Positions 10,655 through 29,775 of a stretch of 31,452 nucleotides of DNA are shown piece by piece. Position 1 is the stretch's first letter, and every line of letters begins with the position of its first letter. Location of the stretch: positions 1 through 31,452 of IMG/VR virus record IMGVR_UViG_2713896902_000003. The stretch is one strand, 5' to 3'. The notes beneath the pieces were generated by a model that saw only the letters and a list, made by a program, of their open reading frames with translations, was not told the origin of the DNA and did not search any database. Made by a program: the position numbers and the translations under genes. Source of the DNA: a virus. Its lineage: Duplodnaviria; Heunggongvirae; Uroviricota; Caudoviricetes.

Positions 10655-11032
10655 ATGACTGAACGCATAGAATTTGTTTTGCCTTATCCGCCTACGGTGA
10701 ACACCTACTGGCGCCGCCGTGGTGGCACATATTTTGTATCAAAATCCGGAGAACGTTATCGCCGTGATGTGGCGCTGATTGTTCGTCAGCAACGGCTGAA
10801 ATTAAACCTGTCCGGAAGGCTGGCAATCAGGATTATTGCAGAGCCACCGGATAAGCGCCGCCGCGACCTGGACAATATCCTGAAGGCACCACTGGATGCA
10901 CTGACACATGCAGGACTGCTTATCGACGATGAGCAGTTTGACGAAATCAATATAGTGCGCGGTCAGCTCGTTCCTGGTGGTCGGCTGGGTGTGAAGATTT
11001 ACGAAATTACAGGTGATAACGATGGCGCGTGA
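10655..11032 (+). CDS. rusA: Crossover junction endodeoxyribonuclease RusA (Holliday junction resolvase), 125 aa
   Basis: Matches RusA by recall: N-terminal [16 protein letters not shown] and the catalytic-region motif [27 protein letters not shown]; usual position just upstream of Q. Confidence 0.9.
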
Positions 11033-11408
11033 TATTCAGCAGGTTATGGAGCGGTGGGGGGCATGGGCTGCAAACAATCATGAAGATGTGTCCTGGGCAT
11101 CAATCGCTGCTGGTTTTAAAGGATTAATTCCGTCGAAAGTGAAATCACGCCCTCAGTGTTCTGATGATGATGCAATGATAATTTGTGGCTGTATGGCCCG
11201 GTTGAACAAGAAAAATCAGGATTTGCACGATTTGTTGGTGGATTATTACATAGGTGGAATGACTTTTATGGGGCTGGCACGAAAGCATGGGTGTTCGGAT
11301 ACCTGTATTGGCAAGCGCCTGCAGAAAGCTGAAGGGGTTATTGATGGCATGTTGATGATGCTTGATATCCGACTGGAGATGGACAGATACGTAGAACGAA
11401 TCATGTAG
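11022..11408 (+). CDS. Late-gene antitermination protein Q-like, about 128 aa
   Basis: Track ORF 11013..11408; ATG at 11022 preferred. Located immediately upstream of a promoter plus intrinsic terminator (PR'/tR' arrangement) and downstream of rusA; Cys/His-containing middle region ([12 protein letters not shown]...HGCSDTC). Confidence 0.7.
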
Positions 11409-11442: not shown

Positions 11443-11504
11443 CCTCACGCGCCAGCAAAATCTGGCGTCGGGATTAGGAACCCCGGATAGAGACCGCGAC
11501 AGAC

Positions 11505-11526
11505 ACACGCCGCGAGCGTGTTTTTT
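11505..11526 (+). terminator. Intrinsic terminator tR' candidate (ACACGC-CGCGA-GCGTGT plus T6)
   Basis: 6-bp GC-rich stem, 5-nt loop, followed by TTTTTTATT; read directly. Confidence 0.6.
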
Positions 11527-11689
11527 ATTGTCGTATGCACGCGCACATCTGAATTATGGTGGGGCGTATGGGGGAGCTGAAAAGCTCGCCGGTTGGTTTC
11601 CCGGTAGTTCCTAACCCTGTACGTCTCACCACCCGATGATTAGGAACCTGACGGTGGTGATGGTTTAGAAACCACCAGAGGGCGTCATT

Positions 11690-12277
11690 ATGACAACTCA
11701 AATTTCTGTTGAAACTCTCTCCCCGATCACCCATAACCAGATTCCTGTTATTACCACCGAACTTTTGGCGCAGTTGTACGGTGCTGAAGTTAAGAACATT
11801 CAAAATAACTACGCCAGAAATGCTGAGCGCTTTATTGAAGGAAAGCATTTTTTCAAAGTGGCTGGCGATGCCCTGAAAAATTTGCGGGTAGCTTTAAACT
11901 ACTCACAAAATTTGCAACCATCTTTAAGAGGGTTACAAATTTCCCCGAAAGCCCGCTCGCTCATACTCTGGACAGAACGCGGCGCAGCCCGCCACGCAAA
12001 AATGCTCGAAACCGATCAGGCGTGGGAAGTATTCGAAAAACTGGAAGACTGTTATTTCAGCCAGAAACAGCCACTAGCAACACAAAACTCACCCACCGAA
12101 AATGATGGATGCGCATTACTGATCCACTTCGATAAACACGGTCAGGTCGACTTTACGGAAAAAGTACCCGCCGATGCGATGGTATGCACTCTGGAACGGT
12201 TCAAATTTTATCTGGAACAACGCGGCTGGATCGTTGCCCGTAAAGAGCAACTGGTGGAACGATTGATGAGGCTTTAA
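11690..12277 (+). CDS. ORF6N-like (phage antirepressor N-terminal DNA-binding domain) protein, 195 aa
   Basis: First ORF downstream of PR'/tR'; RBS AGAGGG; N-terminal region (IPVITTELLAQLYGAEVKNIQNNYARNAERFIEGKHFF...ILWTERGAARHAKML) resembles ORF6N/Bro-N type domains as recalled. Confidence 0.5.
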   Translation: MTTQISVETLSPITHNQIPVITTELLAQLYGAEVKNIQNNYARNAERFIEGKHFFKVAGDALKNLRVALNYSQNLQPSLRGLQISPKARSLILWTERGAARHAKMLETDQAWEVFEKLEDCYFSQKQPLATQNSPTENDGCALLIHFDKHGQVDFTEKVPADAMVCTLERFKFYLEQRGWIVARKEQLVERLMRL

Positions 12278-12355
12278 AAATTTTCCCCGAACGCTTTACG
12301 ATCGTAAAAAGTTGAATATCCTGTTAAGAGTGGTTACTACGCCACACAGCTTAAA

Positions 12356-12377
12356 CCCGCCGATGAGCGGGTTTTTT
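12356..12377 (+). terminator. Intrinsic terminator after the ORF6N-like gene (CCCGC-CGATGA-GCGGG plus T6)
   Basis: Read directly, about 80 nt after the stop codon. Confidence 0.6.
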
Positions 12378-12683
12378 ATGCCCGAAAAGTGGCACAGGAC
12401 GTTAAACGCGCTGGTGGTTGCGAATACTGGTCTTCAGCTTGCTGGCTTTTTTGGCCAGGAGTTATTGGTGTTACATGTCTGACAGTTGTCTGTAACTGGT
12501 TCCGGGATTTTTACACCTGTACAGCGGAAGGGACATGAACCTTTGTTGCTGGCAGGGTTAAGCTAACCAAATCTGAAAGTGGTGTGACTGTCATTGCCGG
12601 AGAGAGATTCATGAGTCTACGCTAATCAATGCGGAGTAATTTTTCTTCGTAACGAGTATCCGACTGTTGTTTTGTCTTTATTG

Positions 12684-12708
12684 CCAGCCCATAAGGGTTG
12701 GTTTTTTT
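12684..12708 (+). terminator. Intrinsic terminator candidate (CCAGCCC-ATAA-GGGTTGG plus T7)
   Basis: 7-bp stem with one G-U pair, then TTTTTTT; read directly. Confidence 0.45.
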
Positions 12709-13084
12709 ACAGAAAATTGCCTGTAAGACAGGTGGTTCAGTAATAGCTTGGATATTGGGATATATAAAAATTGTTATATGTATCCGGGATGTTGTGCGTG
12801 CATGTGGAATACAACCGTTACTGCCTTGTTATTATTTTGAAAACTGGTCGCTGTGTATTCTTGTTCTTTCCGGATAATGTGATGTAGATCTATTACATTA
12901 CCAGGCAGCGTATTTTAACCTTTCAGAGATTCTGAGGTGTTCCCCAGTGCGGGGGTGACGGATGTGGTTGTTTAGCGGGAAGTCACAGTATGCTGTTTTG
13001 GGACTGACAGCAATATACTTCGGGAGGCACCCGACGCTTCGGATCATATCAATAATAATTATATCTTCTTTTGACCATCCTTTT

Positions 13085-13108
13085 ACCGCCTGACAAGGCG
13101 GTTTTTTG
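13085..13108 (+). terminator. Intrinsic terminator candidate (ACCGCC-TGACAA-GGCGGT plus T6), nested in a longer inverted repeat CGCCTGACAA/TTGTCAGGCG (13087-13134)
   Basis: Read directly; the outer 10-bp repeat is also followed by TTTTT (13135-13139). Confidence 0.5.
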
Positions 13109-13226
13109 TTTCTGTAAACAGCATTTGTCAGGCGTTTTTCGATATATCAAAGTATCGCTATGTAGTTTAAATGCAGAGCTGAAGAGTATTGCTGGTGCTG
13201 GCATCAAGATGAGGAAAGTTTTAGTG

Positions 13227-13253
13227 AAAAAAAACGGCTCATAAAGAGCCGTT
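13227..13253 (-). terminator. Reverse-strand intrinsic terminator module 1a (stem AACGGCTC/GAGCCGTT, U-tract from plus-strand A8)
   Basis: Plus strand reads A8-hairpin-TTAAAAA; on the minus strand the hairpin is followed by T8. Confidence 0.5.
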
Positions 13254-13377
13254 AAAAATGTGATAGTTATGCATCTATAGAGTAATTCAGTATTTTCCTG
13301 TTTTTATTGTGCAATTCCTTGATGTGGATCATGTTTGTTGTAATGACCTCAAGAGTTGAACAAACTTTATTTAGTCT

Positions 13378-13404
13378 AAAAAAAATACCCTCCAGCGGAG
13401 GGTA
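13378..13404 (-). terminator. Reverse-strand intrinsic terminator module 2a (stem TACCCTCC/GGAGGGTA, loop AGC)
   Basis: 8-bp GC-rich stem with A8 immediately 5' on the plus strand, i.e. T8 3' of the hairpin on the minus strand. Confidence 0.55.
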
Positions 13405-13526
13405 TAAAATGTGTTAACTAAGCATTCATTATGTTGTAAGTGTCATATGTGATTTTCATTTTATGAGTTTTGACGTGACTTTTTGTGATGTGATTCTTAT
13501 TTTTGAATAATAAAGTTACGTAAAGA

Positions 13527-13557
13527 AATAAAAAAGCGACCCATTTGAAGAGTCGCT
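13527..13557 (-). terminator. Reverse-strand intrinsic terminator module 3a (stem AGCGAC/GTCGCT)
   Basis: Hairpin preceded on the plus strand by AATAAAAAA (U-tract on minus strand). Confidence 0.45.
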
Positions 13558-13671
13558 TGTGAATAAAGGCGGTATGTGAGTAGTAACGTACGGAGTGAAT
13601 TTTACTGCACCAGATGTGTGGTAGATATTGATTCTGGTCAATTCATCTGTAATGAGTGGTTGTTTAACGGC

Positions 13672-13698
13672 AAAAAAATAGCTCCCCGGAAGAGGAGC
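13672..13698 (-). terminator. Reverse-strand intrinsic terminator module 4a (stem GCTCC/GGAGC)
   Basis: Hairpin preceded on the plus strand by AAAAAAATA. Confidence 0.4.
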
Positions 13699-14189
13699 CC
13701 GTGAAAATTCATGGTGAGAAGAACAAGTCTTTACAAAAGACTCCGACAGACAAAGAACCATAAATATGATATGGGGGGGATAGTGGTTCTGTGGTGATTT
13801 ATATCAAAATTTTGATGTTTTCTTGAATGCTTGATGGCTAATTATAATAGTACATATTAAATGTTTATTATTATTTTCATATTGGAATAAGTAGCATCCT
13901 TGATATATCGCCCTGTAACTAGGCGAATGCCGGAAGCAGAACCGGCTCACCAAATACATACGGGCGTCATCACCACCAGCTAACAGCACAACCATAAATG
14001 AAAGTCATAGTTATTGGGGGATCCAGACCTTTCGGTTAACTGGTTTTTCTACAGAAAATTACCAGTCTGGCTGGTGGTTCCGGGAACCGCATCAATTATG
14101 GGGTTTGAATGTAGCGGAAAGTATATTATTGATGTTGCCGGGACTGACAGCAAGGTGAATGAAAAATGGACGTTGGAAAGCTTCTGTGC

Positions 14190-14217
14190 AAAAAAACGGC
14201 ACTGAGAAAGTGCCGTT
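14190..14217 (-). terminator. Reverse-strand intrinsic terminator module 1b (stem AACGGCACT/AGTGCCGTT)
   Basis: Counterpart of 1a with compensatory stem changes; A7 on the plus-strand 5' side. Confidence 0.5.
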
Positions 14218-14338
14218 AAAAAGTAACATGTATGATATATAAGGTCTTGTTAGTATTTTCTGTATTGCGATTCGTTTTCTTTGATTTCAGTCAACATTGA
14301 TGCGCAGTAATTAGTAATGGATTGAAATTTATGCAGAC

Positions 14339-14365
14339 AAAAAAAGTACCCTCCTGACGAGGGTA
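14339..14365 (-). terminator. Reverse-strand intrinsic terminator module 2b (stem GTACCCTC/GAGGGTAC, loop CTGAC)
   Basis: Counterpart of 2a; stem register shifted and loop changed but pairing kept. Confidence 0.55.
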
Positions 14366-14507
14366 CAGGTACGAAAACATGTGAAGAAGTATTTATTGCT
14401 AGTGTTATGTAGAGCTCTGAATCCTACGCGTTCTGATCTTACAAATTTCATATTTTTTTTATGTGATGCAGTTCCTGTTTTTATTTTTTTGTCGGTGATG
14501 GTCTGAT

Positions 14508-14534
14508 AAAAAGCGACCTTTTTACAGGTCGCTT
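14508..14534 (-). terminator. Reverse-strand intrinsic terminator module 3b (stem AAGCGACC/GGTCGCTT)
   Basis: Counterpart of 3a with compensatory change (gaccc...gagtc versus gacct...aggtc). Confidence 0.45.
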
Positions 14535-14647
14535 GTGAACGAAGGAAGTATATGAGTAGTAGTGTACGTACTCTATTTTACTGCTCCAGATGTGTGATGG
14601 ATGTTGATGCAGGTCAACTTTCTGTAATAAATAGTTTTTTAACAAAT

Positions 14648-14673
14648 AAAAAATGGCTCCCGAAAGAGGAGCC
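14648..14673 (-). terminator. Reverse-strand intrinsic terminator module 4b (stem GGCTCC/GGAGCC)
   Basis: Counterpart of 4a; A-rich tract on the plus-strand 5' side. Confidence 0.4.
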
Positions 14674-14942
14674 AATAATGGAAAAGCCTGGAATCTCATA
14701 TATGTAATTGTATACATCTGTATTTTATTTATCGTGTAATAGTTTGTAGTGATTTATATCAATGTTTTGATAGTATTTCTGAATGTCTGGATGCTAATTA
14801 TAATAATGCATATCGCAGGCTTATTATTATTTACGCATTAAAATAAATAGCATCCTTGATATATCATTCTGACTCTGTTGTCTGGTAGTGAGGAATTAAA
14901 ACGGGGAGGAATATACAGATATTCCTGCCTGATATTGTCAAT

Positions 14943-14964
14943 GGGCCGCTGGTGGCCCTTTTTT
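14943..14964 (+). terminator. Intrinsic terminator 18 nt upstream of the holin RBS (GGGCC-GCTGGT-GGCCC plus T6)
   Basis: Read directly: atgggccgctggtggcccttttttatttacaggagaaaaagtATG. Confidence 0.6.
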
Positions 14965-14982
14965 ATTTACAGGAGAAAAAGT

Positions 14983-15375
14983 ATGTCTGAACCCTTATCC
15001 GGTTCCGGCACGGCTGCGGCGCTGGGGGGAGCGACGGTCTTCGGGCTGTTTACCGGGACGGATTTCGGGATTGTGTTTGGTGCATTTGCGGGGGCATTGT
15101 TTGTGGCAACGGTGCCACAGGCACTTTCAGCCTGGCGTGTGGCGGCGCATTTTCTGGTGTCGTTTATCGTCGGCGTACTGGGAGCGCGCGTGCTGTCAGC
15201 ATGGGTTATATCAAAAACAGGGTATGACGCCACGTCTGTGGATGCGCTGTGTGCAGTACTGGTATCAGTGGTGTCGGTGAAGATTCTCTCGTTCATCCAC
15301 CAGCAGGATATTGCATCGCTGGTGTCCGGCCTGTTTTCCCGCCTGCGGGGCGGAGGAGGCGGTAATGTTAAATAA
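14983..15375 (+). CDS. Putative holin, 130 aa, multiple transmembrane segments
   Basis: Track ORF 14878..15375; ATG 14983 preferred (RBS AGGAG, 9-nt spacer). Gly/Ala-rich hydrophobic segments and charged C-terminus; first gene of the lysis cassette upstream of the endolysin. Confidence 0.6.
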   Translation: MSEPLSGSGTAAALGGATVFGLFTGTDFGIVFGAFAGALFVATVPQALSAWRVAAHFLVSFIVGVLGARVLSAWVISKTGYDATSVDALCAVLVSVVSVKILSFIHQQDIASLVSGLFSRLRGGGGGNVK

Positions 15376-15643
15376 CCTTCCCGGATTGCTGAATGTGGCG
15401 TTATGCACGGTTATCGTGCTGACGCTCTTTTTTTATCGTCGTCGTGATTCCAGACATAAACCGCTGATGTCATGGCTGGCCTGGCTGCTGATGCTGCTGT
15501 ATGCCTTTGCGCCACTCAGTTATCTGTGTGGCCGCCCGTTAGCAGCGAACTGGCTGGCAGTGGGGCTTAATCTGCTGTTCTGCGTGCTGGTGATACGTGC
15601 CCGCGGGAATGTTTCGAAAATCCTTGTATTACGAAGGCGCTGA
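15365..15643 (+). CDS. Second lysis-cassette membrane protein (holin or antiholin-like), about 92 aa
   Basis: Track ORF 15311..15643; ATG 15365 preferred (RBS GGAGG upstream, overlaps the holin stop); two hydrophobic helices and an Arg-rich C-terminus. Confidence 0.5.
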   Translation: MLNNLPGLLNVALCTVIVLTLFFYRRRDSRHKPLMSWLAWLLMLLYAFAPLSYLCGRPLAANWLAVGLNLLFCVLVIRARGNVSKILVLRRR

Positions 15644-15644
15644 T

Positions 15645-16190
15645 ATGAAGTCGAAAGATGAAATTTTTGACGAAATTCTGGGCAAGGAAGGCGGTTACGT
15701 CAGTCACCCGGATGATAAGGGGGGCCCGACAAAATGGGGTATTACGGAAAAAGTCGCCCGCGCTCACGGATATCAGGGCGATATGCGTGACCTGACACGC
15801 GAACAGGCACTGGAAATCCTTGAGGCGGATTACTGGTTCGGACCACGCTTTGACCAGGTGGCAACGCTGTCGCCGGATATTGCCGCAGAGCTGTGCGATA
15901 CGGGCGTCAACATGGGGCCAGCCGTGGCGTCAAAAATGCTTCAGCGCTGGCTGAATGTGTTTAATCTGCGCGGCAGGCTGTACCCGGATATGGACGCAGA
16001 CGGGCGCATCGGACCTCGTACCATCAGTGCATTGCGCGTATTCCTGAATAATCGCGGTCAGGATGGCGAACGGGTAATGCTGACAGCCCTGAACTGTACG
16101 CAGGGTGACCGCTATCTGGAGCTGGCAGAGAAGCGTGAAGCCAACGAGTCGTTTGTCTACGGCTGGATGAAAGAGCGCGTGGTGGTTTAA
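15645..16190 (+). CDS. Endolysin, GH108-type N-terminal lysozyme domain with C-terminal peptidoglycan-binding domain, about 181 aa
   Basis: Track ORF 15597..16190; ATG 15645 preferred (follows the upstream stop by 1 nt). Contains the GKEGGYVSHPDDKGGPTKWGIT signature (EGGY catalytic motif of GH108) as recalled. Confidence 0.8.
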   Translation: MKSKDEIFDEILGKEGGYVSHPDDKGGPTKWGITEKVARAHGYQGDMRDLTREQALEILEADYWFGPRFDQVATLSPDIAAELCDTGVNMGPAVASKMLQRWLNVFNLRGRLYPDMDADGRIGPRTISALRVFLNNRGQDGERVMLTALNCTQGDRYLELAEKREANESFVYGWMKERVVV

Positions 16191-16350
16191 AAACTAATAC
16201 TGAAGTGCTGAACACCCTCAACTCATGCAGGCTCTTTTCTGGAGTTACGATGAGCGAAAGTAAGGGGTATGGCATCAGATAGCAAAAACCCCGGCTGCGG
16301 TAACAGTCCGGGGATTCCTGTCTCTGGCCCTGGGTAAGGCAAAGGAGAGT

Positions 16351-16533
16351 ATGAGGAAGTATAAACTAATTCTGTTGAGGTTGACTATGAAAAACGGCCT
16401 TGAATTGAAAGCGCCTGTAACTGATGACATCAGCAGAGCGGTGGCTTTTGCCATTAAGTGGGTGGCGGTTGGTATCGCTGTATCTCCGATGCTGTATGGG
16501 CTGGCAAAACTGGTCATTGCGGTGAAATCGTAA
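16351..16533 (+). CDS. Small membrane protein, 60 aa (48 aa if ATG 16387)
   Basis: ORF with RBS AGGAG upstream; C-terminal hydrophobic helix VAVGIAVSPMLYGLAKLVIAV; function unknown. Confidence 0.4.
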   Translation: MRKYKLILLRLTMKNGLELKAPVTDDISRAVAFAIKWVAVGIAVSPMLYGLAKLVIAVKS

Positions 16534-16550
16534 GTGGGGCGGGGGTAAAT

Positions 16551-16685
16551 ATGTCAGACAGCATCGTAAAACTGGTGAGGATTCTCAGTGTGGTTGTTGG
16601 CCTTTCATTTTCAGCAATGTTGGTTGCCATTTTCATTGCTACAGCCTGGCGAGTCTTGAGCTTATCCGGATTGATTGGTGGTTAG
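16551..16685 (+). CDS. Small membrane protein, 44 aa
   Basis: Track ORF 16458..16685; ATG 16551 preferred (RBS GGGGG, 5-nt spacer, 18 nt after upstream stop); one transmembrane helix. Confidence 0.4.
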   Translation: MSDSIVKLVRILSVVVGLSFSAMLVAIFIATAWRVLSLSGLIGG

Positions 16686-16690
16686 CCGGG

Positions 16691-16909
16691 ATGAAGCGGA
16701 AGCACTGGACACACAGAATGCCTCGGGCGGCAGCGAAAAGGGCACTGGTGGCGATACTGGTGCCTTTTTTATTGGTGGGATGCGTCAGCCTGGATAAAGC
16801 GCGCCAGCTTTTCGATACAGCTTCTCAGGTCTGTGAAATTGTCGACGGTGTTCGGCAGTGTCTGCAGAACAGAATGCCTGTAAGAGCAGAATATTTTGCT
16901 GAAAAATGA
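16691..16909 (+). CDS. Putative lipoprotein (possible o-spanin-like), 72 aa (63 aa if ATG 16718)
   Basis: Signal peptide with lipobox LLVG-C; mature part has three more Cys; last small gene of the lysis cassette. Not Pro-rich, so the spanin assignment is weak. Confidence 0.4.
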   Translation: MKRKHWTHRMPRAAAKRALVAILVPFLLVGCVSLDKARQLFDTASQVCEIVDGVRQCLQNRMPVRAEYFAEK

Positions 16910-17043
16910 AGGATGCGCAGCGTCCGGAAAGCATGAAATTCTGTGTTTGTGGCTGCTCAATAAAATAAATTCTTTCTGTCGCCGCGAATACTCAAATGTT
17001 GATCAGTGCCCGGTGCGGCGACGGGCTTCGATATCAGGAGACG

Positions 17044-17184
17044 ATGATGGAAAAAACAGAAAACAAACCGATAGTAATTGGTGCTGATGCTGCTCCGTTT
17101 AAGTTTGAGTTGCCGTTGCCTGGTGGTTCAACAATCGGTCGATCCGATGATGTGCTGGTGGCTTTCCGGCCGTTGATTAAGTAG
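17044..17184 (+). CDS. Small hypothetical protein, 46 aa
   Basis: Track ORF 16996..17184; ATG 17044 preferred (RBS AGGAG, 3-nt spacer); no motif recognized. Confidence 0.3.
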   Translation: MMEKTENKPIVIGADAAPFKFELPLPGGSTIGRSDDVLVAFRPLIK

Positions 17185-17200
17185 TGTGTAGGAGGCGCAG

Positions 17201-17920
17201 GTGGCTGACAGAATTGAGCTAAAGATGGATTTTTCTTCTCAGGATATTCAACGACAACTCCGGCGCCTTGAAGAACGCGAATTGCCGTTCGCAATGGCGC
17301 TTACGGCAACCAGAACGGCAAAGGCTTCTCAGGCTGCGATTAAGGATGAAATTAATCGGGTATTTGACAGGCCCACGCCGTGGATTCAGAACTCTACTTA
17401 CGTTTTAGCCGCAAAGAAGAGTGCTCCTACAGCCATTGTGTATGCTCGTGAATGGGGGGGAACGCCAGCCCCCGTAACGTTGACTCCGCAAATCGAGGGC
17501 GGCCAACGACAGTACAAACGTTCAGAAGGGGCGCTAAGGTCTGGTGGATATTTGCCTGACGGCTGGCAGCTTGCTCCTGGTCCCGGCGCAAAGCTGGACA
17601 AATACGGGAATATTTCGCGGGGGCAACTACAGCAGGTCTTATCTGGCCTGAGAGTTCAGCGAGATGCGCATCAAAATCGCCGTCAGGGAAAGCCTACGGA
17701 GTTTTTTGTTGTTCGACCTGGTACAAGTAACCCGCTTCAACCAGGCGTCTGGCAGCGCGTTGGGCGGCGTCCTGCGTTGATCCTTACGTTTATCCAGCAA
17801 CCTAACTATTCGCAGCGTCTTGACTGGTATGGCGTGGCGCTGCGTGCTGGTGAGGATGCGTTTGCTGATGAGGTCACAAAGGCTATTGATGACATCCTTT
17901 CTAAGACGTTCTCTCGTTAA
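17201..17920 (+). CDS. Hypothetical protein, 239 aa
   Basis: GC-rich ORF with RBS GGAGG between the lysis cassette and an AT-rich non-coding region upstream of the packaging genes; no motif recognized. Confidence 0.6.
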   Translation: MADRIELKMDFSSQDIQRQLRRLEERELPFAMALTATRTAKASQAAIKDEINRVFDRPTPWIQNSTYVLAAKKSAPTAIVYAREWGGTPAPVTLTPQIEGGQRQYKRSEGALRSGGYLPDGWQLAPGPGAKLDKYGNISRGQLQQVLSGLRVQRDAHQNRRQGKPTEFFVVRPGTSNPLQPGVWQRVGRRPALILTFIQQPNYSQRLDWYGVALRAGEDAFADEVTKAIDDILSKTFSR

Positions 17921-18477
17921 TCATCGTGTGGTTGATGGTGTTGTTATGCAGGGTGTATTCACTGTGTTCTGTAGCGTCGCTCGCTGGCTGTCTGTGGGGG
18001 AGCACGAGCATCGTTTCATCGTCCGGCAGAATTGGGTCCTTCTGGCCAAAAGCGTTGGATGCGGGTCATTCGAACCCCGATGTTCGGCTAGCTAAACGTG
18101 AAAAAAGTTAGGTTAAAAGTTGCGGTAAAAGAAATTTACTCATCTTATTGAAAAATATCGGGAAAACGTGATTTTTTGCTGTATTTGTGCTGGTAAAAAG
18201 AAAGTAGAAAATTTTCTTTTAGATCATCAAGATACGCGCAGATCTTTAACCAATGTGAGGTTGTTCTGGTAAAAATCGTTATAAATCATGTAAATACATC
18301 CAATCTTTTAACCAAAACACCATCGCAAGATCCTTTTTACTTATAAAAACTTAATAAAATCAGATAATTATGCTGGTTTGTGTGATTTTTTATGAGTAAA
18401 AAGATCGTCATTTTTCTCTTTTAGTATCAATAAGTTAAACAGTTTTCTTTAACCTGTTGTGTTATGGCGGTTAAAAA

Positions 18478-19068
18478 ATGGCTCTAAAAATCGAATATTT
18501 ACCAGTCGGTAAGCTGCTCAGATACGCCAAAAATTCACGGACTCATTCAGATGAGCAAGTTGATCAGTTGGTGAACAGTATCCGTGAGTTCGGTTTCACT
18601 AATCCTGTGCTGATCGATGAAAAGAATGAACTGATTGCGGGGCATGGGCGGCTTGCAGCAGCCGAAATACTGGAAATGGATAAAGTTCCGGCGATTCGGT
18701 TGAGTAACCTTTCTGAAAAACAGAAGAAGGCTTACAGGATTGCAGATAACAAGCTGGCCTTAAATGCTGGCTGGGATATGCAGCTTCTGGCCGAAGAAGT
18801 CAAAGAGTTAATGGATGACGATTTCGATATTGATCTGCTTGGGTTTAATGATGCGGAGCTTGACGAAATGTTAAGCGATGAACAGCCGCAGGAAGAAGAC
18901 GATAATTCTTCTCCTGTTGTTCAAATTAAGTACCTGGCTATTGATAAAGAACGTATTCCCGCGACGGATATGGAAATTGCATTGTTGCTGGATGTTTATC
19001 GTCAGTACCACGACGCGCATGAAACGCATGAGGGATTTGTTCAGTATCTTGCTAATGGTTGCAAGTAA
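18478..19068 (+). CDS. ParB-like nuclease domain protein, 196 aa
   Basis: N-terminal ParB/sulfiredoxin-type motif (ELIAGHGRLAAAE); acidic C-terminus; common immediately upstream of terminase genes. Confidence 0.7.
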   Translation: MALKIEYLPVGKLLRYAKNSRTHSDEQVDQLVNSIREFGFTNPVLIDEKNELIAGHGRLAAAEILEMDKVPAIRLSNLSEKQKKAYRIADNKLALNAGWDMQLLAEEVKELMDDDFDIDLLGFNDAELDEMLSDEQPQEEDDNSSPVVQIKYLAIDKERIPATDMEIALLLDVYRQYHDAHETHEGFVQYLANGCK

Positions 19069-19628
19069 TGGCCATCGTCAGTAAGTCAGAGTTTGCTCGC
19101 CGGAAAGGTATTTCTCCGGCAATGGTTACGAAGCTCTGTCGTTCCGGTCGCATTCCAGTGCTGAAAAGCGGCAAGCTGGATTTTGATAAAGCCAGTGCGG
19201 CTTATGCAGCGAGCCGACAGGTTGGTCGTGAGGTATCTGCTGAAAATGGAAAAAGAGGGCATGGGATATCTTCGGAACAACCAGAGTTACCTGCTGATGA
19301 TGCCGGATTAGCTGGTGGTACTTCCGGTGTTGCGGTGCAATTCAACAAGGCTAAGACCGCAGAAAAAATTTATCAGGCAAAGCTGAAACGCCTTGAATTT
19401 GAAGAAAAGGAAGGCTCTCTCATCGCTAAAGATGCGGTCAGGGATGATGCATTTCTGGCAGCTAATGAATTGCGTAGCCGCTTATTTAGTATTGCTCCAA
19501 GAGCAGCTCCCCGTTGTGAAGGCAAAACAGCCAGGGAGATCGAACGCATTATTGAAGACGAGATTAACTTTGCGCTTCAGGCGCTCCAGGAATCCAGATT
19601 TATTAAGCAGGAAGAGCAGGAAAAATAA
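19068..19628 (+). CDS. Terminase small subunit (Nu1-like), about 186 aa
   Basis: Track ORF 19059..19628; ATG 19068 overlaps the ParB-like stop. N-terminal HTH (SKSEFARRKGISPAMVTKL), directly upstream of the large terminase gene. Confidence 0.7.
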   Translation: MAIVSKSEFARRKGISPAMVTKLCRSGRIPVLKSGKLDFDKASAAYAASRQVGREVSAENGKRGHGISSEQPELPADDAGLAGGTSGVAVQFNKAKTAEKIYQAKLKRLEFEEKEGSLIAKDAVRDDAFLAANELRSRLFSIAPRAAPRCEGKTAREIERIIEDEINFALQALQESRFIKQEEQEK

Positions 19629-19633
19629 ACCTC

Positions 19634-21490
19634 ATGGGCGAAACAGTCTGGAGCACCGCTTTTTTCCGTGCGCTTCGCCCTAAATCACGGCTAACTGTTT
19701 CCGAATGGGCTGATAAGTATCGCCATGTAGCGCCGGGAACGTCTCCAGAGCCGGGGCCGTGGCGTACAAGCCGGGTGCCATATTTGCGTGAGCCAATGGA
19801 TGTTATTGGTGACGCTGATACAGAAACAGTAGTGATGCAATGTAGCTCGCAAATTGGTAAATCTGAATTACAGCTAAATGTTATGGGCTACTTTGCAGAT
19901 CAGGAGCCATCTCCTCAGTTGATGATTTATCCAACGGTAGAGGCGGCTGAGGCTTTTTCAAAGGAACGTATTGATCCGACGTTCAAATATTCCCCTGGTT
20001 TGAAACACAAGCTGCATGAAGGGAAAGAGGGGCGCGGCGCAGCCAAAAAGTCCAGCACGACTATACGTATGAAGCATTACGCTGGTGGATATATAGCACT
20101 TGTTGGTGCTAATTCCCCAGCAGGTCTTGCATCCAGGCCAATTCGAATACTGTTAGCTGATGAGATTGATCGTTACGGTGTAACGCAGGAGGGCGACCCA
20201 CTAAAACTAGGTATTCAGCGTACTACCAACTTTCATAATCGTAAGAAAGTTTTTGTTTCTACTCCTGTTTTGGAGGAAACGAGCAAAATCCACAAGTGGT
20301 TTAAGCTCTCAGATCAGCGTTACTACCATGTTCCTTGCCCATGTTGTGGGGCCATGCAGGTGATGAAATGGTCGCAGGTCAGATGGGATAAGAGTGATTC
20401 AGGTGAGGCGTTACCGGAAACGGCCAGATATGAGTGCTGTGAGTGCGGCGGGATTATGCGCGGATCTGGTAAACCAGACGTTGATTGGTTGGCGAAGGGG
20501 ATATGGATAGCTGAATATCCTGGAGTTAAAGGTATTGTTGGTTTTCATATTAACAGTCTTTACTCCCCGTGGGTTGCATTGTCAGAGCTGGTTGAAGAAT
20601 TTACGGAAGCAACCAGAAACCGTGATAAAAATGGATTAATGGAGTTTATTAACCTTAAGCTGGGTGAGCCATGGAAAGAGGATGCTAAGGACGATATCGA
20701 TCCTGAATACTTGTTGCAACGCAGAATAAGGTTTGAAGAGTTTTTACCAGATGATGTTTTATTGTTAAGTGCTGGTGTTGATGTACAGGACACATATTTA
20801 GTTTGTGAATTGGTCGGTTGGGGAAAAGGTAAGGAATCATGGGGGATAGAATATAAAATATTTCCGGGCGATCCCGCACAAGATGTTGTCTGGAAACAAC
20901 TTGATGAATACCTACTCCGTAGCTGGTCATTCCGTGACGGTCGAAAATTACAGATTTCTTCCGTTTGTATTGACTCTGGTGGGCATTTTACAACAGAGGT
21001 ATATCGATTTACTAAGCCGCGGGAATCAAGGCGAATATACTCTATCAGAGGTCGTGGTGGGGTAGGTTTACCATTTATAGGAAAGCCAGGTAATAATAAC
21101 CGTGTGGGTGCTATGTTGTTTAATTTGGGGGTTGATGATGGTAAAGGGACCATCATGGCACGAATTAAGATACATGATCCTGGTCCTGGTTATATGCATT
21201 TTCCATTAGATTCTGACAGAGGATATGATACCGAATACTTTAAAGGGCTATTATCTGAGAAAAAAATATTTGAATATAAAAATGGTCAGACAAAAGAAAA
21301 GTGGGTGAAAGTCTACGAGCGTAACGAGCCTCTTGATTGCCGTAACTATGCAACTGCTGCGATGGAAATTCTGAACCCTAATTTTAACTGGCTTGCCGAA
21401 CAGGAAATGCGAGGTAATGTGTATGTGCAGAACTCGTCAGGTATACGTAGAAGACGCCGTAGAGTTATAAGTAAAGGCGTAACCATATAG
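19634..21490 (+). CDS. Terminase large subunit (lambda gpA-like), 618 aa
   Basis: Size, position and N-terminal region (WADKYRHVAPGTSPEPGPWRTSRVPYLREPMD; Walker A-like SSQIGKSE) consistent with the gpA family. Confidence 0.85.
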   Translation: MGETVWSTAFFRALRPKSRLTVSEWADKYRHVAPGTSPEPGPWRTSRVPYLREPMDVIGDADTETVVMQCSSQIGKSELQLNVMGYFADQEPSPQLMIYPTVEAAEAFSKERIDPTFKYSPGLKHKLHEGKEGRGAAKKSSTTIRMKHYAGGYIALVGANSPAGLASRPIRILLADEIDRYGVTQEGDPLKLGIQRTTNFHNRKKVFVSTPVLEETSKIHKWFKLSDQRYYHVPCPCCGAMQVMKWSQVRWDKSDSGEALPETARYECCECGGIMRGSGKPDVDWLAKGIWIAEYPGVKGIVGFHINSLYSPWVALSELVEEFTEATRNRDKNGLMEFINLKLGEPWKEDAKDDIDPEYLLQRRIRFEEFLPDDVLLLSAGVDVQDTYLVCELVGWGKGKESWGIEYKIFPGDPAQDVVWKQLDEYLLRSWSFRDGRKLQISSVCIDSGGHFTTEVYRFTKPRESRRIYSIRGRGGVGLPFIGKPGNNNRVGAMLFNLGVDDGKGTIMARIKIHDPGPGYMHFPLDSDRGYDTEYFKGLLSEKKIFEYKNGQTKEKWVKVYERNEPLDCRNYATAAMEILNPNFNWLAEQEMRGNVYVQNSSGIRRRRRRVISKGVTI

Positions 21491-21501
21491 AGGAAATATA
21501 A

Positions 21502-21741
21502 ATGAACAATGAAGCATTTTCTCTGACTGAAGCCAGAGAGATGTTATCTGTCTGGCGGGAAGCATATCGCGCTATTGCTATTGGCGGTCAGTCATATAAA
21601 TTTGGCACGCGGCAGTTAACTCGTGCGGATTTGTCAGAAGTCAGAAAAGAGATGGATTACTGGCGTAATGAAGTAGAAAGATTATCAGCAGGTATACGCC
21701 GAGGCCCACGAATTAAACGAGTGGTGATAAGAGATTTATGA
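21502..21741 (+). CDS. Head-tail joining protein, gpW-like, 79 aa
   Basis: Small ORF between terminase and portal, as in lambda; RBS AGAGGA. Confidence 0.55.
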   Translation: MNNEAFSLTEAREMLSVWREAYRAIAIGGQSYKFGTRQLTRADLSEVRKEMDYWRNEVERLSAGIRRGPRIKRVVIRDL

Positions 21742-23312
21742 ATATTCTTGATCGAGTTATTGCGCCGTTTTCACCTCAGAGGGCATTAAATCGAGCTTTG
21801 GCAAGAAAACGGTTAGAAACACTTGAAAGTATTAATAACCTTGGATATTCACGTCATGGTGCAAGCACTCATAAAAAATCATTAAGGGGTTGGTTTAGTA
21901 AAGCTGGTTCTCCTGATGATGATATTGTTAAAAATATAGATAAATTGCGTGAGCGTTCTCGTGATCTCTTCATGGGAAACCCGCTATCGGTTGGCGCAAT
22001 AAAAACTATCAGGACAAACGTTGTTGGCTCCGGTTTAAAACTAAATGCGAACATTGATGCCGATTTTTTGGGGATGACGCAGGAAGAAGCGCGAGCATGG
22101 GAAAAACATGTTGAGCGTGAGTTTAGATTATGGGCTGATTCTCCAGATTGTGATGCATCAAGAATGTGTACTTTTGGACAATTGCAATCATTGGTCCAGA
22201 TATCTGCGTTAACATCTGGCGATATATTTGCTGCGCTACCAGTTATTAAGCGAAAGGGTGTTATCTATGATTTATGCGTCTATTTAATTGAAGGTGATCG
22301 TGTTTGTAATCCAGAGGATCGTTTTATACCAAATCTTTACGGTGGCGTAGAGGTTGGTGAATTTAGCGAGCCTGTGGCGTACTGGGTTGCAAAACATCAC
22401 CCAGCTGGGACTTCTGGTTTTGTAACCCGCAAGTGGGAACGTATTCCCGCATATGGGAGTAAAACAGGAAGAAGAAATATTCTGCATGTCATGCAGGATT
22501 TTGAAAGGCCTGGGCAACGTCGTGGCGTTCCTGTCCTTGCTCCTGTAATTGAAGCATTGAAGCAGTTAGGACGATACACCGATGCTGAATTGGTTGCTGC
22601 GGTTGTGTCAGGGATGTTTACAGTTTTTATTAAAACAGACGCGCCTGATGGACCAGTAGGCGGATCGGGTATCCCTCAGTACGAGCAGATCGATAATCAT
22701 GATGATAACACCCAGGAAATGGGGAATGGCTCCATAGTAAGTTTGGGCGAAGGTGAGTCGATAGATACAGCAAATCCCGGGCGACCAAATACGGCATTTG
22801 ATGGTTTTGTTGTCGCCATATGCCGTCAAATTGGGGCGGCTTTAGAACTCCCTTACGAACTCTTGGTAAAACATTTTACAGCAAGTTATAGCGCGAGTAG
22901 GGCCGCATTACTTGAGGCCTGGAAAATGTTCCGTATGCGACGTGACTGGATGGTTCAGTCATTCTGTCAACCGATCTATGAGGAATGGTTGGCCGAAGCT
23001 GTTGCCAAAGGTCGTGTTATTGCTCCTGGTTTTTTTTATGGTCCTGAATATCGCGCGGCATGGAGTGGCGCCCAATGGTATGGGCCATCACAAGGCCAAT
23101 TAGACCCTCTTAAAGAGGTTAAAGCTGCAAAAATGCGTGTTGAAGAAACATTCTCTACCCGTGAAAAAGAAGCGGCTGAAATGTCAGGTCTTAACTGGGA
23201 AGAAACCGCACAAATTTGTGGCAGGGAGGAGAGAGCTCGCCGTGAATTGGGGCTGATTACGCCTCCTGTTTCTGAGGTAAATGAACAAAATATGGAGACA
23301 GATGATGCCTGA
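21738..23312 (+). CDS. Portal protein (lambda gpB-like), 524 aa
   Basis: Size and position after terminase and gpW, before the prohead protease. Confidence 0.8.
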   Translation: MNILDRVIAPFSPQRALNRALARKRLETLESINNLGYSRHGASTHKKSLRGWFSKAGSPDDDIVKNIDKLRERSRDLFMGNPLSVGAIKTIRTNVVGSGLKLNANIDADFLGMTQEEARAWEKHVEREFRLWADSPDCDASRMCTFGQLQSLVQISALTSGDIFAALPVIKRKGVIYDLCVYLIEGDRVCNPEDRFIPNLYGGVEVGEFSEPVAYWVAKHHPAGTSGFVTRKWERIPAYGSKTGRRNILHVMQDFERPGQRRGVPVLAPVIEALKQLGRYTDAELVAAVVSGMFTVFIKTDAPDGPVGGSGIPQYEQIDNHDDNTQEMGNGSIVSLGEGESIDTANPGRPNTAFDGFVVAICRQIGAALELPYELLVKHFTASYSASRAALLEAWKMFRMRRDWMVQSFCQPIYEEWLAEAVAKGRVIAPGFFYGPEYRAAWSGAQWYGPSQGQLDPLKEVKAAKMRVEETFSTREKEAAEMSGLNWEETAQICGREERARRELGLITPPVSEVNEQNMETDDA

Positions 23313-24369
23313 TTGGTGGGAAATAAAAAATAGCACGGGTGAAGATGACTCTCCGGCTGAACTTTTAATTTACGGATATATTGGTGAATTTGATGAGGTT
23401 TCTTCTTCTGATATAGTGAATAAGCTAAAGGATATTTCATCAAATACTATCAACGTAAAAATTAATAGTTATGGCGGTTCTGTTTTTACTGCTCAAGCTA
23501 TTCTTTCATCATTAAAGCGCCATAAGGCAAATATTACTGTTTATATTGACGGTATTGCTGCATCTGCTGCAACTATTATTGCAATGGCGGGTGATAAAAT
23601 TATTATCCCATCTAATGCTATGATGATGATCCATAATCCGTGGACATGGGCAATGGGGGATGCGGATGAATTGCGTGATATTGCTGAGATGATGGATAAA
23701 ATACGAAACAGTATTTTATCTGCATATAAGGAGAAAACAGGGCTTTCTGAAGATAAGTTAATTGAACTGATGGATCAGGAAACCTGGCTAAATGCAGAAG
23801 AAGCTGTTGAGCTTGGGTTTGCTGACGAGGTTGAAAAACCAATACGGCTATCTGCTTCCATAAAGGAAGGGATGCTTTCGCTCAATGGAATAACTTTTGA
23901 AGCATCAAGGTTTTCAAAATTACCTGATTCGCTCGCAAAGCTGCCGCAAAATAAAAATGAATTATCTACTGAATCAAATGAACAAAATGAGGATGATGTT
24001 GTGACTCTTGATGAATTAAAAAATAAACATCCAGAATTATACAATCAGGTTTTTAATGCTGGTAAAGATGAGGGCGTTAAATCAGAACGCGAGCGCATTG
24101 AAACAATTGAGAATAGCGTGATTCCAGGTCATGACGACCTGGTTAAGAATGCAAAATTCAAAACGGGAGTTTCTGCTGCTGAACTTGCTTTGGAAATTAT
24201 GAATGCAGAGCGAGCGCGTAACAAAAACTTTCTTAATCAACGGCAAGAAGACGCAAATGAGGTGAATGATTCAGTTGATGTTAATCAACCAGAAAACAAC
24301 GGCAACAAACAGGCTGAAGCAGTAAAAAATATTATTGGGTCAGTATTTAAAAACCGCGATAAAAATTAA
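23281..24369 (+). CDS. Prohead protease, ClpP/S49-like, with C-terminal scaffold-like region, 362 aa
   Basis: ClpP-like segment SYGGSVFTAQAI...IDGIAASAATIIAMAGDKIIIPSNAMMMIHNPW; charged, coiled-coil-like C-terminal half. Confidence 0.75.
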   Translation: MNKIWRQMMPDWWEIKNSTGEDDSPAELLIYGYIGEFDEVSSSDIVNKLKDISSNTINVKINSYGGSVFTAQAILSSLKRHKANITVYIDGIAASAATIIAMAGDKIIIPSNAMMMIHNPWTWAMGDADELRDIAEMMDKIRNSILSAYKEKTGLSEDKLIELMDQETWLNAEEAVELGFADEVEKPIRLSASIKEGMLSLNGITFEASRFSKLPDSLAKLPQNKNELSTESNEQNEDDVVTLDELKNKHPELYNQVFNAGKDEGVKSERERIETIENSVIPGHDDLVKNAKFKTGVSAAELALEIMNAERARNKNFLNQRQEDANEVNDSVDVNQPENNGNKQAEAVKNIIGSVFKNRDKN

Positions 24370-24378
24370 GGTGAGTTT

Positions 24379-24762
24379 ATGCGAGAGTCTTTTTCATTTG
24401 AACCAGATAATCTGATTATTTCTGGTGGTATGCCAGCAATTCCAACAAGTATTAAACTTGCCAGCGGTAAAGTAAAACGGGGTGAGTTACTTGCTTTTGT
24501 CAGTATTGATCAGACAACAAATGTTGTCACTGTGGCGCCAATAAACCTCTCTGGTGAAGGGGAGGCAAAAGAACCGTATTGTATCGCTCAACACAGTATT
24601 GATGCGACTGATTCAGCGCAAGTCGGGACAGCATGGTTGACCGGAATGTTCAATGCACATGCGGTTATCCTTCCTGAATCAGCAAAGGTTGCCGATGTAT
24701 ATTTAGCTTGCCGGAAGGTTGGGATATTCCTTAATACCGCACAACAAAATCCATCTGCATAA
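24379..24762 (+). CDS. Head decoration protein candidate (gpD-like), 127 aa
   Basis: Small ORF between protease and major capsid gene, the lambda D position. Confidence 0.5.
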   Translation: MRESFSFEPDNLIISGGMPAIPTSIKLASGKVKRGELLAFVSIDQTTNVVTVAPINLSGEGEAKEPYCIAQHSIDATDSAQVGTAWLTGMFNAHAVILPESAKVADVYLACRKVGIFLNTAQQNPSA

Positions 24763-24781
24763 TATAAAGAGGTAATATTTT

Positions 24782-25819
24782 ATGGTTGATATTTTTGAAC
24801 GACGTACAATGCTTGAGCCTGTTATTCAGAATTTCAAGGCTCGTCGTTTTCTTCTCCGTACTTTTTTTCCTGGTATTCAGACCTTTAATTCAAAGAAAGT
24901 TGATCTGGATTTTGTTCGCGGTGGCCGTACTATGGCTCCATTTGTTGGTAAACGTTTTGGCTCTAAAACCGTTGAGCGACGCGGCTTTGTAACGAGAACG
25001 CTGGAGCCACCACTGATTGCGCCTGATTTGGTAACAACGGCAGAGCTTCTTTTAAACAGGCTTCCTGGGGAAACTATTTACAATGCGAAATCGCCCGCAG
25101 AACGAGCTGCCGAGCAATTAGGCAAGGATTTGCTTGAGCTTGATGAAATGGTTAACCGCCGTGAAGAATGGATGTGTGCACAGGTCTTGTTTACGGGGCA
25201 GGTTGATATTGTTGGTGAAGGAGTGGATGACACAGTTTATTTTTGGCCTGAAGAGGAAGGAGATAAACCATATCTTGAACTGACAGGTGATGATTTATGG
25301 AGTGCAGCAAAATCAGATCCGTTGGTCAATGTTCGCAACTGGAAACGTCGTGTATCACTAACTTCAGGTTTTACTCCTCGTGTTGCCGTAATGGGGGCAA
25401 AAGTTGTTGATGCATTCGTTAAAAATGAAGCTGTAAGTAAATATCTTGATAATCGCCGAAAAGAGTTTGGGTATATTAAGCCAGAGGACTTAGAAGAAGG
25501 CGTAACTCATTATGGTAATGTTGAGGGACTCGATTTTTATGGTTACGACGAGCTTATTCTCAGTGATAAAACAGGAAAGCCAGAACCATTAGTACCGGAA
25601 GATAAGATTCTCCTTGGCTCTCCGGGGCGGGGAACGATGCTGTATGGTGCTGTAGAGCTTGTAGATGACGCCGAAAAGACCCTAACGATTGTTGAGTCAC
25701 CACGAGTTCCAGACACCTGGGTAACTCGTAAGCCGGCTGGCCGTTATGTTGCCATGAAGTCATCTCCACTGCCTAATCCTGGTGTGGCTGATGCCTATCT
25801 GGTGGCTAAGGTGGTTTAA
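24782..25819 (+). CDS. Major capsid protein (lambda gpE-like), 345 aa
   Basis: Length and position; N-terminal FLLRTFF motif parallels FLRLFF of lambda gpE as recalled. Confidence 0.8.
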   Translation: MVDIFERRTMLEPVIQNFKARRFLLRTFFPGIQTFNSKKVDLDFVRGGRTMAPFVGKRFGSKTVERRGFVTRTLEPPLIAPDLVTTAELLLNRLPGETIYNAKSPAERAAEQLGKDLLELDEMVNRREEWMCAQVLFTGQVDIVGEGVDDTVYFWPEEEGDKPYLELTGDDLWSAAKSDPLVNVRNWKRRVSLTSGFTPRVAVMGAKVVDAFVKNEAVSKYLDNRRKEFGYIKPEDLEEGVTHYGNVEGLDFYGYDELILSDKTGKPEPLVPEDKILLGSPGRGTMLYGAVELVDDAEKTLTIVESPRVPDTWVTRKPAGRYVAMKSSPLPNPGVADAYLVAKVV

Positions 25820-26212
25820 ATGGCCAGACTGATTAAAAATATTGATACGATAAGCCACGGCTCGCTAAAAGCGGGCCGTTTGCTTAATGGGCTAATGGAT
25901 AACTCCAGGATTGCCGAACTGATTGCGTCAGGACATGCTATTGCCACCGAAGAGGATGGTGATTTGGCATCGGCTGGGGGCTATGATGCTGCTAAGTTAG
26001 CTTTTGAGCATGGATACGCATCTGCTGTTAATGATGCTGTGGACGCGGGGTTGATTACGCGAACGGAGGCGGGTAGCTGTGTATTCGAGGTTGAGTTTGA
26101 GGATGATGGCGGCAATGAGGAAACAGTTGCTGATGATTCATCTGAATCTGTAGCTACTTCTGATGCCAGTAATGCGAAAAAATCAACGCAAAAAAAAGGT
26201 AATAAGAAGTAA
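25820..26212 (+). CDS. Hypothetical head-associated protein with acidic C-terminus, 130 aa
   Basis: ORF from track directly after the capsid gene. Confidence 0.5.
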   Translation: MARLIKNIDTISHGSLKAGRLLNGLMDNSRIAELIASGHAIATEEDGDLASAGGYDAAKLAFEHGYASAVNDAVDAGLITRTEAGSCVFEVEFEDDGGNEETVADDSSESVATSDASNAKKSTQKKGNKK

Positions 26213-28792: not shown

Positions 28793-28808
28793 ATAATAGG
28801 AGGTTGCT

Positions 28809-29330: not shown

Positions 29331-29339
29331 GGTGACGAA

Positions 29340-29770: not shown

Positions 29771-29775
29771 TACTA

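Follow-up and report, generated by a model that had tools for sequence, protein, structure and literature searches.

A candidate array of eight short RNA genes with FNR-type promoter boxes, lying backwards ahead of the lysis genes of a lambdoid prophage

The DNA analysed here (the window: 31,452 nucleotides, the whole of IMG/VR record IMGVR_UViG_2713896902_000003) is a lambdoid prophage, in which the stretch from the end of an ORF6N antirepressor-like gene to the first holin gene (12278-14982) carries no gene and is a 'moron' site downstream of the late promoter PR'. Our analysis indicates that this stretch probably contains an array of short small RNA (sRNA) genes, each with its own promoter and its own terminator, which run backwards with respect to the late genes and are probably switched by FNR at low oxygen; we put the probability of this reading at roughly 0.6. 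According to it, two tandem cassettes of ~0.8 kb would have been inserted backwards at the moron site, with the late-gene activator region on one side and the lysis genes on the other, and each cassette would consist of four independent and very short minus-strand transcription units, named a, b, c and d here in the order in which they follow one another along the minus strand. Each unit would comprise a palindrome, a spacer of 20-23 nt, a sigma-70 -10 hexamer, a mostly unstructured 5' part of ~30-60 nt, a U-rich stretch, a GC-rich hairpin and a tail of 6-8 U, and the products would be RNAs of 59-91 nt built like Hfq-binding, Rho-independently terminated sRNAs.

The starting point was an original prediction that placed eight reverse-strand hairpin/U-tract modules in this stretch, in two units, and read them either as minus-strand non-coding RNA genes or as an insulator made of many terminators. 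A terminator scan recovered all eight minus-strand hairpins with their T-tracts at the positions predicted, and the description of the region as terminator-dense also held, with 17 terminator-like sites between 11500 and 15500 as compared with 3.6 +/- 1.7 in shuffled sequences. Genes a, b, c and d correspond to hairpins 4, 3, 2 and 1 of that prediction. The eight predicted genes, 59-91 nt in RNA length, occupy 1.8 kb and are laid out as follows.

13672-13807, minus strand: unit 1 gene a; box TTGATATAAATCAC at 13807-13794, -10 TATCAT at 13771-13766, predicted start ~13759, stem 13699-13680, U tail to 13672, predicted RNA ~88 nt
13530-13641, minus strand: unit 1 gene b; box TTGACCAGAATCAA at 13641-13628, 23-nt spacer, -10 TAAAAT at 13604-13599, predicted start ~13592, stem 13558-13534, end 13530, predicted RNA ~63 nt
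13378-13498, minus strand: unit 1 gene c; degenerate half-box AAGAATCACATCAC at 13498-13485, -10 TAAAAT at 13463-13458, predicted start ~13451, stem 13405-13385, end 13378, predicted RNA ~74 nt
13227-13332, minus strand: unit 1 gene d; box ATGATCCACATCAA at 13332-13319, -10 GAAAAT at 13297-13292, predicted start ~13285, stem 13253-13233, end 13227, predicted RNA ~59 nt
14648-14762, minus strand: unit 2 gene a; box TTGATATAAATCAC at 14762-14749, -10 TAAAAT at 14727-14722, predicted start ~14715, stem 14674-14654, end 14648, predicted RNA ~68 nt
14508-14617, minus strand: unit 2 gene b; box TTGACCTGCATCAA at 14617-14604, -10 TAAAAT at 14580-14575, predicted start ~14568, stem 14532-14513, end 14508, predicted RNA ~61 nt, which includes ACUUCCUU
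14339-14476, minus strand: unit 2 gene c; half-box AGGAACTGCATCAC at 14476-14463, -10 TAAGAT at 14441-14436, predicted start ~14429, stem 14366-14346, end 14339, predicted RNA ~91 nt, which includes an insertion of 15 nt when compared with other lineages
14190-14294, minus strand: unit 2 gene d; box TTGACTGAAATCAA at 14294-14281, -10 GAAAAT at 14260-14255, predicted start ~14248, stem 14216-14196 (14217-14195 in the terminator scan), end 14190, predicted RNA ~59 nt

The evidence that carries this interpretation is comparative. Searches for exact copies of the holin and ORF6N proteins on either side turned up ~15 more assemblies or read sets in which the gene-free region occurs in diverged form, and from these, the window and an E. 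coli genome we compared six cassette lineages (win_u1, win_u2, L044_a, L044_b, the single unit of L038, and that of Escherichia coli C8), whose pairwise identity is 55-77%. In all six the four minus-strand terminators are present with unchanged order and spacing. Outside the terminators, the best-conserved columns of the alignment form a repeated module in which a 14-bp palindrome is followed, after a spacer of 20-23 nt, by a -10-like TAnAAT hexamer. Each terminator lies ~60-90 nt downstream of a promoter-like module of its own, with its stem beginning ~35-65 nt past the hexamer, and the modules of the four genes read as follows across the lineages.

Gene a: palindrome TTGATATAAATCAC, -10 TAAAAT or TATCAT
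Gene b: palindrome TTGAYNNNNATCAA, -10 TAAAAT, TAGAAT or TATAAT
Gene c: palindrome nnGAnNNNNATCAC, -10 TAAAAT, TAGAAT or TAGGAT
Gene d: palindrome TTGAYNNNNATCAA, -10 GAAAAT or GAGAAT

A -10-like hexamer with A at its second and T at its sixth position is found on the terminator side of the palindrome in 24/24 units and on the opposite side in only 1/24, which argues that the palindromes belong to minus-strand promoters. The hexamer scores at least 4 of 6 in 22 of the 24 units; the background at random positions for such a score with the same two bases fixed is 12%. Each hairpin is, as predicted from these modules, the end of its own transcription unit of 59-91 nt, and the association of every terminator with a palindrome and a -10 hexamer at a fixed distance favours the first of the two original interpretations, an array of minus-strand sRNA genes.

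The palindromes themselves resemble binding sites of FNR, whose consensus is TTGAT-N4-ATCAA and whose sites at activated promoters are centred at -41.5 +/- 4, with that of fnrS at -42.5 (PMC3688515). With one mismatch allowed at most, six sites fall in 13130-14990 where 0.24 are expected, a number that 0/2000 dinucleotide shuffles reach, and three more in the remaining 29.6 kb of the window. Boxes a, b and d show 0-2 mismatches to the consensus in 18/18 cases over the six lineages, three of them being perfect, and the distance from box to -10 is 20-23 nt in all 24 units and exactly 23 nt in all six b genes. The fnrS promoter of E. coli K-12, with the box TTGAGCGAAGTCAA, a 22-nt spacer and the hexamer CAATAT, has the same geometry as the modules of the array. 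Boxes a, b and d are accordingly placed like predicted FNR-type sites in the class II position, centred at about -41.5, and the RNAs would therefore probably be made at low oxygen. Box a is a constant hybrid, with an FNR-type left half and a CRP-type right half (ATCAC), and box c, which has 3 mismatches to the consensus and conserves only the CRP-like ATCAC, does not qualify as an FNR site; FNR control of gene c is therefore doubtful and an input from CRP possible.

Conservation within the cassette is uneven. Mean pairwise identity is 0.71-0.93 for the boxes, 0.58-0.87 for the -10 hexamers and 0.60-0.85 for the terminators, as against 0.47-0.68 for the RNA bodies, 0.42-0.61 for the gaps between genes and 0.58 for the whole cassette. 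The hairpins are kept in 24 of 24 instances (-7.3 to -15.2 kcal/mol, with U-rich tails) amid flanks at 42-61% identity, so that the stems proved to be conserved in the homologues, and this is better evidence of selection than covariation. The covariation that had been read as selection on RNA structure found little support: in MAFFT alignments, the stems of a, b and d are paired in 92-96% of cells and mostly invariant, with 0-1 double-sided changes, which is not above shuffles. What stood of that argument is stem c, which exists as either ACCCUC/GAGGGU or CGCCCC/GGGGCG, both of them fully paired; it is described here qualitatively, because MAFFT gave no structure-consistent register for it. 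A separate observation concerns terminator b of L039 (unit a), and likewise of L042 and L043, where AAGCGCCCC replaces AAGCGACCC in the 5' arm. The resulting stem is weaker and no longer called by the scan, a case of single-gene decay in an otherwise intact array.

The predicted RNAs have an open 5' part followed by the terminator hairpin, and their folding was compared with that of shuffled controls, as the original prediction had proposed; six of the eight are more stable (z = -2.1 to -5.1) and the other two reach about -1.4. In most genes the stem is preceded, at a distance of 1-6 nt, by a UUU(U) run, which does not vary in gene d, and the tail comprises 5-8 U. A U-rich stretch, a hairpin and a long U tail make up the Hfq-binding module of enterobacterial sRNAs according to Ishikawa et al. 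2012, as cited in PMC4104026, and this type of 3' module is found across the 24 hairpins. Transcription of the units, their dependence on FNR, the binding of Hfq and an action in trans on host or phage mRNAs are what we infer from these sequence features.

Gene b is the best conserved of the four and keeps the body motifs CUAC..AUAUAC..CCU. In three lineages it contains UACUUCCUU(U), which is identical to the CU-rich stretch of FnrS. Mimicry of FnrS by gene b was considered and set aside as a lead only, since the shared match arises in 7-31% of multi-tested shuffles. Searches with Rfam 15 (AgvB, AsxR, Esr41, FnrS, STnc100, IsrK, DicF and others) gave no match at the gathering threshold in 13130-14990 of the window or over the array in L044, L038 and L001, and at E<=5 only chance-level matches of terminator type appeared over the array.

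Several points weigh against an array of FNR-switched, trans-acting sRNA genes. Genes a, c and d show little conservation in their RNA bodies (0.47-0.54), an unusual pattern for a selected trans-acting seed, and of 38 phage translation-initiation regions screened in the window none pairs with the RNAs above shuffled controls. The 10-nt identity of the C8 gene b with the seed region of FnrS is not significant after multiple testing (20/300 nulls). On the promoter side, gene d has weak -10 hexamers (GAAAAT, GAGTAT, AAAGAT), gene c has no proper half-site on the left, and FNR sites in AT-rich DNA can be masked by H-NS (PMC3688515), the region being AT-rich at 36% GC. Finally, the cassette is rare, and the comparative argument rests on six lineages only.

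Part of this evidence fits the main rival view, in which the units would act in cis as an antisense or transcriptional-interference device that fires against the late operon, the sequence of the RNA being irrelevant. RNAs complementary to the ~3.5-kb late leader, or converging polymerases together with bound FNR, or both, would then lower or delay expression of the lysis genes at low oxygen. The drift of the bodies beside conserved boxes, -10 hexamers and terminators is what this view predicts, since complementarity is automatic: the units are convergent with the late transcript, so the RNAs would be perfect antisense to its long leader. All units also oppose PR'-driven late transcription directly upstream of the holin, and the failure to find a trans target among the phage translation-initiation regions agrees with it. 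Against it, gene b retains conserved body motifs; all genes keep Hfq-type 3' modules (U-run, hairpin and long U tail) that mere interference would not need; polymerase modified by Q and coming from the strong PR' would be expected, from the biology of lambda, to occlude weak converging promoters and not to be halted by them; and related RNAs at the same site in enterohaemorrhagic E. coli (EHEC) act in trans (PMC4104026). We regard a purely cis-acting device as possible but unlikely. Even so, because the RNAs would automatically be antisense and the promoters and terminators are more conserved than the bodies, the array might modulate late and lysis expression by oxygen. In its most specific form this becomes an oxygen-sensing lysis gate, which is speculative and which we hold to be improbable: up to eight FNR-activated promoters would fire head-on into the leader of the late operon, and antisense RNAs or polymerase traffic would keep holin and endolysin expression down in the anaerobic gut until oxygen appears.

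The sRNA genes may also be real while the palindromes are not FNR sites but respond to CRP, to another protein of the CRP/FNR family or to a phage factor, or simply aid constitutive promoters. The hybrid box a (TTGAT....ATCAC) and box c, with ATCAC only, point this way, although boxes b and d carry the FNR-discriminating outer T...A bases in both halves in nearly all lineages, some at perfect consensus, with the spacing seen at fnrS and at other FNR promoters of class II, and a consensus scan of the window showed no cluster of such sites in the prophage's own immunity region; we think this rather unlikely. Far less probable is the second of the original interpretations, a passive insulator of many terminators that protects the antirepressor, Q and early genes from leftward transcription and contains no RNA genes. 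Eight strong minus-strand terminators in series would suit such a role, but one or two would do, the intervals between them are not random filler, and the conserved box and -10 at a fixed distance from each terminator in six lineages are left unexplained. It is just as hard to defend a reading as small coding genes, decayed or overlooked, on one strand or the other. The small plus-strand open reading frames (ORFs; MSSSVRTLFYCSRCV...) at 13576-13704 and 14552-14707 have 22 N-terminal codons in common, the latter with a strong Shine-Dalgarno sequence (GAAGGAAG-5 nt-ATG), and on the minus strand hairpins 4 and 3 lie within ORFs of 81 and 78 aa. The plus-strand ORFs are, however, intact only in the window's two units; in the other four lineages they contain stops or lack a start, and the frame shifts even between the two window copies. 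The Shine-Dalgarno/ATG segment at 14552 is the reverse complement of the CU-rich/CAU segment of RNA b. The minus-strand frames are broken among lineages, and the translation of the 81-aa ORF has no relative among 5.8 billion proteins. Coding genes were thus rejected for want of any frame conserved across lineages, as the original prediction had maintained. Gene callers could nevertheless mis-annotate 13576-13704 and 14552-14707 as genes.

The array of sRNA genes, our preferred reading, seems to have a composite history. The two units are true direct repeats, ~960 bp apart, but they are only 62.5% identical overall. Between and beside them lie the following elements.

13917-14080, plus strand: spacer between the units, with a lambda-like Q-S intergenic segment (13917-13998), a hairpin (~14036-14050) and a 40-nt repeat
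14041-14080: the 40-nt repeat, with a second copy at 12699-12738
13817-13909, upstream of gene a: conserved AT-rich block of unit 1, with the palindromes AATTATAATT and TGATATATCA
14773-14865, upstream of gene a: the same AT-rich block in unit 2

The segment 13917-13998 (~80 nt) is 84-87% identical to the Q-S intergenic region of lambda (BL21(DE3), K-12 strains) and has a further match, directly behind tRNA-Ser, in P1-like plasmids (~90 kb) of E. coli and Salmonella; it looks like a recombination scar common to lambdoid late regions, and the spacer as a whole is probably a recombination joint. The low identity of the units, the lambda-like fragment and the 40-nt repeat between them argue for recombination of two old cassette lineages and against a recent duplication, and the pair looks, on sequence grounds, like two such lineages joined in this way. 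In the AT-rich block, AATTATAATT yields a perfect TATAAT on both strands, and possible roles for the block are an UP-like element or a promoter, either divergent or for the plus strand. L044_a has lost exactly this block, through a deletion that runs between two CATTC repeats, and yet retains gene a. In E. coli C8 a 76-aa hypothetical coding sequence follows the block on the plus strand.

On its left side the array does not adjoin the Q antiterminator gene (11013-11408, PF06530), as had been supposed, because IsrK, a C4 RNA and the ORF6N gene intervene. The neighbouring features are listed here.

11449-11526: IsrK Rfam match (69 bits), downstream of Q
11552-11636: C4 antisense RNA (67 bits), between Q and the ORF6N gene
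11690-12277: ORF6N antirepressor-like gene, left neighbour of the gene-free stretch
12355-12372, plus strand: terminator after the ORF6N gene
12683-12702, plus strand: terminator
13085-13102, plus strand: terminator that ends a weak STnc100/PasD-like stretch (12901-13111)
~14036-14050, plus strand: degenerate terminator-like hairpin in the spacer between the units
14943-14958, plus strand: terminator directly upstream of the holin gene
14983 onwards: Phage_holin_8 gene, start of the lysis cassette, followed by a second holin and a GH108 endolysin

The segment 11436-12277, directly after Q, is a P1/Gifsy-1-like module of c4-a1b1 targets, IsrK, C4 and the ORF6N antirepressor-like gene, so that the long late leader opens with an antirepressor cassette controlled by IsrK/C4; the same module occurs in lineages L038 and L044. 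In related prophages a hok/sok type I toxin-antitoxin locus lies a few kb upstream of Q (L038 437-612 and L044 2753-2928; Rfam sok 119 bits; Pfam HOK_GEF). There are four or five plus-strand terminators in all within the region, and the one at 13085-13102 opposes terminator d of unit 1, which makes the layout convergent. Two plus-strand stretches left of the array gave sub-threshold Rfam matches, 12715-12805 to STnc490 (25 bits) and 12901-13111 to STnc100 (21.7 bits, gathering score 47). The latter, whose counterpart also adjoins the cassette of E. coli C8, may be a PR'-proximal sRNA of PasD/STnc100 type that faces the array. To the right, the terminator and leader upstream of the holin (14943-14980) match over 38 nt at 100% Escherichia phage SerU-LTIIb, an Actinobacillus phage and many prophages of Shiga toxin-producing E. 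coli, in which the segment overlaps 'putative holin' annotations; this is the position reported for PasA/PasC.

The two halves of the prophage differ in their relatives. The lysis and structural half (14983-31452), where a tail sheath gene and ParB-like genes are found, aligns over 90% of its length, at ~96% identity, with E. coli plasmid records of ~47 kb, which are probably phage-plasmids, and the early half shows only ~89% identity, to Rac-like E. coli prophages, which makes the prophage a mosaic joined near the sRNA array. The host genes beside the integrase (ompW-yciC-tonB-kch) are only 86% identical to those of every E. coli genome, so the host is a non-coli Escherichia-like species; assembly GCA_001514725.1 is 100% identical to the window over the region.

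The cassette itself is present in 6/5426 complete E. coli genomes, as a single unit, for example in strain C8, and these copies lie unannotated in RefSeq between a Q-like gene and the holin. IMG/VR holds only four contigs with it, all of C8 type, and pattern searches there returned 25 unrelated terminators with a generic terminator pattern and nothing with the promoter pattern of gene b. No homologue of the cassette was found in phage GenBank records, none among PLSDB plasmids, where only the lambda-like spacer matched, none among GTDB species representatives, which gave 3 chance matches in unrelated phyla, and none in JGI metagenomes, which gave 0 matches and then 8 chance matches inside coding regions of AT-rich organisms.

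The original prediction did not recognise the array as a described element, which holds for its sequence, as no lineage has an Rfam match and no E. coli copy a RefSeq annotation, and does not hold for its kind. Lambdoid prophages of EHEC carry convergent Hfq-bound sRNAs of 51-60 nt in the moron position 3' of PR' (Tree et al. 2014, PMC4104026), among them the AgvB/AsxR 'anti-sRNAs' (EcOnc01-03), which have conserved 3' parts and variable 5' parts. Such moron-site RNAs are known to rewire host regulation in EHEC. The array shares with AgvB/AsxR the niche between the Q-antiterminated PR' and the lysis genes, the convergent orientation, the very short length (59-91 nt predicted here), a conserved terminator part with a variable 5' part, and the presence of several related but non-identical copies. 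It differs in having no sequence or structure homology to them, even in Rfam matches at E<=5, and in its four different genes per cassette, eight in a row, most preceded by an FNR-type box, where AgvB/AsxR come in pairs. We would place the array, known from its sequence, in the moron-site class of Tree et al. 2014 by architecture and not by homology.

The likeness to FnrS, the FNR-activated Hfq sRNA of the enterobacterial core genome, lies in the class II layout of the box with the same distance from box to -10 (PMC3688515), in the Rho-independent terminator and in the UACUUCCUU(U) of gene b, although this 9-10-mer, found in three lineages, is within chance after multiple testing. Unlike FnrS, the predicted RNAs are of half its length, without an Rfam FnrS match, prophage-borne and multi-copy. 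If the array is what we propose, FnrS would lose its place as the sole well-characterised FNR-activated sRNA of enterobacteria, and the anaerobic post-transcriptional response would gain a horizontally transferred, fast-diversifying branch. The array would, moreover, be a compact natural system in which to follow how sRNA genes evolve, with four to eight minimal promoter-seed-terminator genes that combine a conserved chassis with free-running 5' regions, and it could serve to test convergent non-coding transcription as a modulator of phage late genes. Should the lysis gate be true, the phage would couple lysis to the oxygen sensor of its host through non-coding transcription alone.

The Pas sRNAs, defined in enteropathogenic E. 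coli E2348/69 and reported in 1362 genomes (Zhu, Shabalina & Storz 2026 preprint, 10.64898/2026.05.13.724894), are, like STnc100, prophage intergenic sRNAs near Q and holin, and the weak STnc100-like stretch on the plus strand at 12901-13111 adjoins the array on its left. The cassette differs in its distribution, being found in six of 5426 E. coli and not in E2348/69 (whose presence among these genomes was unchecked), a comparison that concerns occurrence and not the Pas sequences. A third kind of likeness is to tandem multicopy sRNA loci. Listeria LhrC1-4, OmrA/OmrB and PrrF1/F2 have one promoter and one terminator per copy, and their copies are close paralogues with a shared seed. As in loci of the LhrC type, the small genes of the array stand head to tail, each with its own intrinsic terminator and its own, predicted regulator-dependent, promoter, whereas the four genes of a cassette have only the architecture of promoter and terminator in common. 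What appears to be new here, with no earlier description found, is a four-gene cassette doubled to eight genes, with an FNR-type class II box before most of them.

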